Source: Candidatus Marinacidobacterales bacterium
GTDB taxonomy: Bacteria; Acidobacteriota; Vicinamibacteria; Marinacidobacterales; SMYC01
Direction of reading: 5' to 3'
NCBI GenBank assembly: GCA_965224085.1
Contig: CBDCYI010000004.1
Span: 800,001 to 864,000, forward strand
Length of the DNA: 64,000 nucleotides
The notes beneath the pieces were generated by a model. It was not told the origin of the DNA. It ran no database searches and saw nothing but the letters and a program-made list of their open reading frames with translations. This document shows, piece after piece, positions 40,855 through 41,004 of the stretch (within the stretch, counting starts at the first letter, position 1; each line of letters begins with the position of its first letter). Made by a program: the position numbers and the translations under genes.

Positions 40855-41004
40855 CTATTCGCCGCCCTCGGGCACGATGGTCTCGCTGAGGTAGCGATCC
40901 TTGAGGGTGCGAGCGTCCTTCGCGATCTCGAGGATAATTCGCTGAGCGCTGTGCTCGCGCGCGTCGTGCTCTTCTTCGATTTCAAATTCGAGGATGGGTT
41001 CCAT
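40855..41004 (-). CDS. Pup/UBact-like small protein ending in GGE (49 aa; not in ORF track)
   Basis: Manual translation MEPILEFEIEEEHDAREHSAQRIILEIAKDARTLKDRYLSETIVPEGGE*; AGGAG 11 nt upstream; 20 nt upstream of the ligase start. Confidence 0.8.
   Translation of the reverse strand: MEPILEFEIEEEHDAREHSAQRIILEIAKDARTLKDRYLSETIVPEGGE

Follow-up and report, generated by a model that had tools for sequence, protein, structure and literature searches.

A Gly-Gly-Glu-ending small protein and a divergent Pup_ligase-family enzyme as a candidate two-gene Pup-type cassette in Acidobacteriota

We analysed a stretch of 64,000 nucleotides from Candidatus Marinacidobacterales bacterium, a member of the Acidobacteriota (GenBank assembly GCA_965224085.1, contig CBDCYI010000004.1, positions 800,001 to 864,000 of the forward strand), which we call the window. 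On its minus strand, a short gene for an acidic protein of 49 amino acids ending in Gly-Gly-Glu lies directly 5' of a gene for a 560 amino acid enzyme of the Pup_ligase family (Pfam: PF03136). In actinobacterial pupylation, Pup is a small acidic protein with a GGQ or GGE end, whose terminal Glu is ligated to lysines of target proteins by PafA. We consider it probable that the small protein, here called the tag, is a modifier and the enzyme its dedicated ligase, and that the two genes form a Pup-type conjugation cassette.

The tag gene occupies positions 40855..41004 (minus strand, stop codon included), as read from the reverse-strand sequence and the listing of open reading frames (ORFs). Its 49 codons run from the ATG at 41004-41002 to a last GAA at 40860-40858, followed by the TAG at 40857-40855, and the protein is acidic, with 14 Asp and Glu compared to six Lys and Arg residues, and ends in ETIVPEGGE. 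A Shine-Dalgarno-like AGGAG (41016..41020, minus strand) is found 11 nt 5' of the ATG, and exactly 20 nt (40854-40835) separate the stop codon from the GTG at 40834 of the ligase gene on the same strand. The original prediction, made from the letters of the window, had described the ORF, its GGE end, the ribosome binding site and the 20-nt spacing, and every one of these details was seen in the sequence. The window has 881 stop-to-stop frames of 40 amino acids or more, and among them only the tag ORF has a GGE or GGQ ending. In the source genome, the tag profile gives a single significant match. GGAG or GGAGG is present within 20 nt 5' of the start in 13 of the 15 orthologues listed, where the start codons were our choice and that of L017, one of the two orthologues without the motif, was set three codons too far in. 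A scan of positions 37000-44000 gave no promoter-like sites, and six terminator-like sites compared to a shuffle mean of 6.2.

The tag ORF is a real, strongly conserved gene. We compared 12 orthologues of related genomes over their 29 final codons. The ratio of non-synonymous to synonymous substitution rates (dN/dS) has a pairwise median of 0.21 in frame versus 1.46 and 2.35 in the shifted frames, and 19, 11 and 28 of the 29 sites are variable at codon positions 1, 2 and 3, respectively. The amino acid sequence of the tag is under purifying selection. A chance ORF is ruled out by the in-frame dN/dS together with the rarity of the ending among the frames of the window. There is furthermore a hint of transcription in the RNA library (metatranscriptome) run X15, which contains a 193-nt contig with a depth of 10.1 and no mismatches that spans positions 40820-41012, and hence the tag ORF and little else. 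This contig excludes the adjacent ligase gene and is the sole perfect-match contig on a 2.9-kb stretch, the uncovered parts of which do not imply a silent ligase in X15. Two further runs of unrecorded library type, X1 and X5, were taken as DNA, and in them all 30 bins of the same stretch are evenly covered. The X15 contig is a hint and no proof, because contigs reveal neither strand nor ends. Its coincidence with the tag ORF suggests a short abundant transcript, or a stability unlike that of the ligase message.

A profile built from 17 tags and searched against 1.84 billion representative proteins gave 104 matches at E ≤ 0.001, mostly of 46-65 amino acids. All 104 have the GGE C-terminus and none ends in GGQ. 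In an alignment of 83 sequences, consisting of the window tag and 82 of the 104 matches (those longer than 60 amino acids were omitted), Met1, Gly47, Gly48 and Glu49 are invariant, and Asp30, Ala31, Tyr38, Thr42, Val44 and Pro45 are conserved in at least 90%. A search in a second database resulted in 399 clusters of tags (90% identity). None of the 120 tag matches listed carries a Pfam domain, and the source names are 'hypothetical protein' save for a HicB-type name given automatically and one empty entry.

Pup proteins are small, of about 50-90 amino acids, and the tag family has no detectable relation to them beyond its size, its acidity and its Gly-Gly-Glu end. Comparing the tag with Pfam and NCBIfam gave nothing at E ≤ 10, searching the genome with the Pup model at E ≤ 1 gave no match at the tag locus, and a look-up in the ESM Atlas with the tag gave no usable match. 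Neither the Pup models nor the NCBIfam ubiquitin-like tag models matched any of the 83 family members at E ≤ 1, and a profile-profile comparison (hhalign) of the tag family with seven canonical acidobacterial Pups gave a probability of 1.85%. As a positive control, the Pup model PF05639 finds Pup-like ORFs in four other acidobacterial genomes and five of the seven canonical acidobacterial Pups. By profile, the tag is not a demonstrable Pup, PF05639 and hhalign both being negative, and the check with Pup hidden Markov models that had been proposed together with the original prediction left the tag unmatched. The suggestion that it may be a distinct tag family stands with respect to the database models and to detectable similarity. 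As a first sighting it does not stand, as the pairing of such a protein with a ligase was already reported in 2008 (PMC2588565).

The tag gene is an obligate partner of the ligase gene. Among 41 related genomes the ligase is present in 16, namely in G000 and 15 of the 18 others of its family, and in none of the 22 genomes of two sister families. A small GGE-ending frame is located immediately 5' of the ligase in all 16 of them, counting G018, in which a 15 amino acid tag remnant lies beside a broken ligase gene. The tag profile matched 17 of these 41 genomes, which are the 16 ligase carriers and G001 with a weak partial match. In a sample of 401 genomes from across the phylum, the ligase clade was found in two, G000 and G216 (51% identity), and the tag profile matches exactly these two. 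G216 belongs to another acidobacterial family, and there too the tag ORF lies directly 5' of the ligase.

Metagenome contigs were scanned with an alignment of 34 enzymes, which led to 80 loci with enzymes 32-90% identical to that of the window. In 75 of these loci at least 200 nt are available upstream, and we looked for the ORF within 400 nt upstream on the ligase strand. A GGE-ending ORF directly 5' of the ligase was found in 72 of the 75, mostly 1-40 nt from the enzyme start. The five loci with less than 200 nt upstream were counted apart, and four of them retain the tag end. As controls, ORFs ending in GGE or GGQ were found in none of 75 cases on the opposite strand of the same DNA, in one of 52 within 430 nt downstream and in none of 54 between 870 and 1300 nt upstream. 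In one of the three loci without a called tag, L088, the motif is present with no stop codon after it on a low-coverage contig. The conservation of a short GGE- or GGQ-ending ORF upstream of ligase homologues, which the original prediction had proposed as a check, was thus seen in the related genomes, in G216 and in the metagenome loci.

Three of the related genomes have damaged copies of the ligase gene. It is split over two or three frames in G013 (L041) and G006 (L042), and in G018 (L015) a TGA and fragments stand beside the 15 amino acid tag remnant. These broken ligases are either assembly errors of the metagenome-assembled genomes or decaying copies of the cassette. The partial tag match in G001, a genome of the same genus without a ligase match, is located at C125:10697-10801 (minus strand) inside a 158 amino acid frame, with an E-value of 8e-4 over profile positions 6-40. 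It is without the Gly-Gly-Glu end and is probably spurious or a remnant.

The ligase gene (39152..40834, minus strand, GTG start) matches PF03136 with an E-value of 2.3e-73 over profile positions 1-439 of 441. The bit scores stay below the cut-offs of both NCBIfam equivalog models, with 163 bits versus 551.3 for PafA (TIGR03686) and 141 bits versus 492.3 for Dop (TIGR03688). Compared with solved structures, its sequence lies at a similar distance from Dop (E 2.8e-31) and PafA (E 2.6e-24). In a maximum-likelihood tree, which is unrooted and was built from 11 of the 34 rows of the enzyme alignment, ten metagenome loci and eight canonical acidobacterial genes, the 21 clade members group on a single branch (support 100/100), separate from four Dop (100/99) and four PafA-type (91/85) sequences. 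By its sequence, the ligase is neither PafA nor Dop and belongs to a third Pup_ligase clade. Hence the neighbouring gene, which the original prediction had called a PafA-family gene, does belong to the Pup_ligase family PF03136, and it is no PafA orthologue. There are 757 matches to the ligase, including homologues with Myxococcota and Deltaproteobacteria labels, where the organism names of distant members are source labels only.

The AlphaFold model of the ligase has a predicted local distance difference test score (pLDDT) of 90.4 and a predicted template modelling score of 0.91. The best Foldseek matches of the modelled structure are the Dop-Pup complex (PDB: 7oyh) with an E-value of 5e-25 and a TM-score of 0.80 by target length, and the PafA-Pup complex (PDB: 4bjr) with an E-value of 1.3e-23. 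Further, distant structural matches are YbdK and, at ranks 12-28, gamma-glutamyl-cysteine ligases. The Gly-h-Glu-x-Glu nucleotide-binding motif is present as G8-Q-E10-T-E12 in the window and has the consensus G-L-E-T-E in the clade. This motif, the catalytic Asp and positions that discriminate Dop from PafA are named by Hecht et al. (PMC7947786) in the part of the paper available. The position of the catalytic Asp of PafA and Dop is aligned with Glu65 of the ligase (codon 40640..40642, minus strand), which is also a predicted tag contact; it is Glu in all 21 clade members and Asp in the eight canonical Dop and PafA sequences. Core residues common to the clade and the canonical enzymes include E77, E82, D128, R261, R298 and R330.

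Within the N-terminal half of the ligase there is a hydrophobic insertion at residues ~147-250 (40085..40396, minus strand), recognised from the sequence, the alignment and the model, which is predicted to be a membrane anchor. A hydrophobic stretch of about 50 residues is found at the insertion in all 34 clade members, and a second one in most of them. The insertion is missing from the Dop and PafA rows (two each) in the alignment block listed. In the model its helices are predicted at residues 147-194, 202-209 and 212-245. The insertion would hold the ligase at the cytoplasmic face of the membrane, and with the ligase held there, its targets would probably be membrane-associated.

To look at the interaction of both proteins we predicted the structure of the tag-ligase complex. 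The complex obtained a score of 0.79 compared to 0.14 for the best of three controls. Of 80 solved complexes 58 attained the mark of the tag-ligase pair, as did two of 110 mismatched pairs, where the calibration is only rough because we supplied our own alignments. The contacts agree by at least 95% across three runs, and the pLDDT of the partner is at least 72. Tag residues 23-39 are predicted to lie on the ligase helices 458-494, and the tag tail, residues 34-48, on ligase residues 12-18, 65-75 and 123-134, which contain the Glu-x-Glu strand, Glu65 and Asp128. The prediction supports a tag that binds the ligase with its tail in the active site. Together with the tight linkage of the two genes, this modelled position of the tail favours the proposal of the original prediction that the tag is the cognate modifier of the adjacent ligase.

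In the mechanism we propose, the central helix of the tag (~23-39, with the near-invariant Asp30, Ala31 and Tyr38) would dock on the helical domain at the C-terminal end of the enzyme, and the extended tail ET-I-V-P-E-G-G-E would cross the beta-sheet active site. There, by analogy with PafA, ATP would activate the gamma-carboxylate of the terminal Glu, which would then be ligated to an amine, most probably that of a target-protein lysine. That the ligation depends on ATP, which acceptor is used and what the mark does in the cell are inferences. As the tag is always encoded with Glu and never with Gln, no Dop-type deamidase would be needed, and none is present.

The source genome, which is 95% complete, contains one gene with PF03136. 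No Pup was found in it by profile. A search for the 20S proteasome gave a single PF00227 match in the genome, a 206 amino acid frame that we read as HslV-like since the same family also matches in E. coli and B. subtilis. For Mpa, no match to the pup_AAA model over its cut-off was found in the genome, the best having 142.6 compared to 504.75 bits. Given a genome without 20S proteasome and Mpa, the mark is likely to be regulatory or to feed another pathway rather than proteasomal degradation.

There are several points which weigh against a Pup-type modifier and its ligase. The tag shows no detectable sequence similarity to Pup, and conjugation is proposed by analogy with PafA. The support from RNA is a single assembled contig without strand or ends, for which DNA carry-over is possible. 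Two of the 75 metagenome ligase loci, L062 and L125, have no tag ORF in the 450 nt examined. As PafA-Pup (4bjr) and Dop-Pup (7oyh) are solved, the complex score, besides its rough calibration, may mirror likeness to these structures. On the side of the enzyme, the sequence match to the hydrolase Dop is slightly nearer than that to PafA. The catalytic Asp is replaced by Glu65 in the whole clade, a conservative change, and there are further clade-wide replacements, Gln137 for His, Lys281 for Arg, Gln329 for Arg and Gln332 for His. With these altered active-site residues, the chemistry or the acceptor could differ. Finally, in the AlphaFold 2 model the insertion consists of two very long helices instead of four membrane spans, so that anything from two to four spans is conceivable.

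One alternative is that the acceptor is an amine-bearing lipid head group or a membrane-proximal small amine, so that the product would be a lipid-anchored peptide like the conjugate of Atg8 with phosphatidylethanolamine. The insertion, shared by the whole clade, would put the active site beside the bilayer, and Glu65, Gln137, Lys281, Gln329 and Gln332, which differ from PafA and Dop, are compatible with a different acceptor. Moreover, the pair has no linked gene for a reader, a protease or a removal enzyme. Yet the nearest characterised enzymes use protein lysines, and the tag is strongly acidic without a sign of a membrane function. Iyer et al. proposed membrane proteins as targets (PMC2588565). 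Taking both sides together, we regard a lipid or small-amine acceptor as unlikely.

It is also improbable that the enzyme is a hydrolase or another non-ligase and the small protein a regulator, inhibitor or substrate mimic. This explanation draws on the slight lead of Dop over PafA in both the sequence and the fold matches to solved structures and on the replaced catalytic Asp. It is weakened because the single family member in the genome would leave a pure hydrolase without conjugates to remove, and because an invariant GGE end, encoded in the gene itself, is just what would be required of a ligase substrate. In addition, the clade is gapped where the Dop rows of the alignment block listed have an extra N-terminal stretch, which we read as the Dop-loop region, and has Ala-Thr-Pro before the conserved Glu-Cys as in the acidobacterial PafA-type rows. 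The NCBIfam PafA model also scores above the Dop model.

The neighbouring genes bear on a further alternative, in which the tag would be a scaffold or precursor of a metabolite or of a product like those of ribosomally synthesised and post-translationally modified peptides, with its C-terminal Glu extended or amidated by the carboxylate-amine ligase and then processed by the class-III aminotransferase, HpcH-type aldolase and short-chain dehydrogenase/reductase (SDR) encoded nearby. In the window the neighbours of the pair are an aminotransferase, KptA/Tpt1 and chorismate synthase. The gene order SDR, HpcH aldolase, class-III aminotransferase, tag, ligase and chorismate synthase is found in eight of eight loci of the family (HpcH matched in six of them), and the superfamily of the enzyme includes gamma-glutamyl-cysteine ligases. 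However, the aminotransferase cluster is present in 15 of the 80 metagenome loci, with ligases at least 65% identical in all members listed. Beyond it no gene recurs more than seven times among the neighbours in the 80 loci, and none does so beyond the closely related acidobacteria. Distant loci have unrelated neighbours (amidohydrolase, dihydroorotate dehydrogenase-like, cytochrome c peroxidase, DUF1501 and a kinase-sigma fusion), and the binding helix and tail of the tag are conserved far outside that lineage. With a synteny confined to one acidobacterial family and lost in distant loci, we rejected such a scaffold as very improbable. The conserved unit is the two-gene pair.

That the tag ORF is open by chance, or serves as a leader ORF that only regulates the translation of the ligase, would fit a short ORF, mostly unannotated in the sources and 20 nt from the ligase start, but is barely conceivable given the purifying selection on its amino acid sequence, a C-terminus invariant in 104 clusters that are mutually at most 50% identical, an ending unique among the 881 window frames and a confidently predicted interface with the enzyme.

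The candidate cassette of modifier and ligase can be compared with the known Pup-type systems. With the canonical actinobacterial Pup-PafA-Dop-Mpa-proteasome system it shares the GGE-ending small protein beside an enzyme of the Pup_ligase fold, the core residues and, in the predicted complex, helix-plus-tail binding with the tail in the active site. Unlike in the canonical system, Dop, Mpa and the 20S proteasome are missing from the window genome, the enzyme, from a separate clade, carries a membrane insertion and has Glu in place of the catalytic Asp, and the tag never ends in Gln and has no PF05639 match. UBact is another small Glu- or Gln-terminated modifier, found outside Actinobacteria in several Gram-negative phyla beside PafA and Dop homologues, and its loci include Mpa, Dop, PafA and proteasome subunits. 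Measured against this general description of UBact, the source genome differs in having no Mpa, Dop, PafA or 20S proteasome. Pup-type tagging without a 20S proteasome is described for Corynebacterium glutamicum in a review (PMC8223512), where canonical Pup, PafA, Dop and the ARC unfoldase are present, in contrast to the window genome with only the tag and one divergent enzyme.

The closest precedent is the work of Iyer, Burroughs and Aravind from 2008 (PMC2588565). In Plesiocystis and Rhodopirellula they described Pup and Pup-ligase genes unlinked to proteasome genes, the ligases having four trans-membrane segments inserted after core strand 4 in the N-terminal half. They reported Pup to be always beside a PafA homologue and often unannotated, and called the small G[EQ]-ending proteins Pup orthologues. 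Furthermore, they predicted an anchor at the cytoplasmic membrane face and reported a linked gene for a membrane protein. The window pair agrees with this clade in the hydrophobic insertion in the N-terminal half, the adjacent G[EQ]-ending protein and the absence of a linkage to the proteasome. It differs in that the window comes from Acidobacteriota, a phylum unmentioned for the clade in the accessible part of that paper, and in that the linked membrane-protein gene it describes is neither beside the window pair nor a conserved cluster in the 80 loci. The tag family is also unseen by current Pup models and by hhalign, unlike the naming as Pup orthologue in that part of the paper would suggest. 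On the features given there, the window family probably corresponds to the sequences of Iyer et al.

In L062, at ~5550-6000, a small hydrophobic, membrane-protein-like frame takes the place of the tag upstream of the ligase. This frame may be the 'linked membrane protein' of Iyer et al.

As an outgroup, Hecht et al. (2020, PMC7947786) took a PafA/Dop homologue that occurs as a single copy in some Planctomycetes. Like this homologue, the window enzyme is single copy, about equidistant from PafA and Dop and outside of their duplication, with which our unrooted tree agrees. No function, adjacent tag or membrane insertion is given for the planctomycete homologue in the available part of PMC7947786. 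Judging by these shared properties, the window clade would be the same as the planctomycete homologue. We found no experimental study of the ligase clade in the literature searched, which lacked most subscription papers, and Iyer 2008 and Hecht 2020 alone touch the clade in their accessible parts. The system is an uncharacterised variant that was noticed computationally in 2008, and not categorically new; it is unmodelled in Pfam and NCBIfam. It matters less than the original prediction supposed, as both the clade and the small protein encoded beside it had been pointed out in 2008.

It is possible, although we do not quite lean towards it, that the cassette represents a third ancient branch of Pup-type systems which predates the duplication into PafA and Dop. 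Such a branch would be a minimal two-gene cassette with its own family of Glu-terminated tags (Asp-Ala...Tyr...Thr-x-Val-Pro-x-Gly-Gly-Glu) and a membrane-embedded enzyme with Glu for Asp. It would occur in Acidobacteriota, Myxococcota and probably Planctomycetota, and would mark membrane-associated proteins or even lipids, unrelated to the proteasome. Pupylation has been studied almost entirely in Actinobacteria and as a proteasome route. The cassette would be a natural case of a Pup-type tag and a single enzyme working alone at the membrane, without deamidase, unfoldase or proteasome. It makes two questions testable, namely which outcome other than degradation tagging can have and which activity was ancestral before PafA and Dop diverged. 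In addition, a profile from the tag family would mend a systematic gap in annotation.

Some further observations concern the genes around the cassette and other Pup-type loci. A gene with DUF1501 was found near the distant loci L081-L083, at positions 11153-12655, in the cluster of L081, L082, L083 and L099. We take this domain to be typical of Planctomycetota, and it is the sole hint of a planctomycete origin or reach of the cassette.

Acidobacteriota hold two separate Pup-type systems in different lineages. The loci L044-L049 and L133 (from genomes G051, G052, G071, G087, G121, G294 and G330) are of the Pup type, with small ORFs ending in GGQ or GGE beside genes of the Pup_ligase family. We scanned four of these canonical loci. 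Three contain a Dop whose score reaches or approaches the equivalog cut-off, and in two the PafA-type genes are clearer. One of the same four contains an Mpa-like ATPase, and in two of them a pair of ~240 amino acid ORFs lies in between.

Directly 3' of the ligase stop codon, the window has a gene for the RNA 2'-phosphotransferase KptA/Tpt1 (38576-39151, minus strand). This insertion is present in one of the eight family loci, that of the genus of the window itself, and has no evident functional link to the tag. On the other side, a gene at 43791-45560 (plus strand) encodes a protein of 589 amino acids, in which the short-chain dehydrogenase domain covers only residues ~346-537 and the ~340 N-terminal residues have no Pfam match. 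This protein is conserved in all eight family loci, where its gene is divergent from the HpcH and aminotransferase genes.

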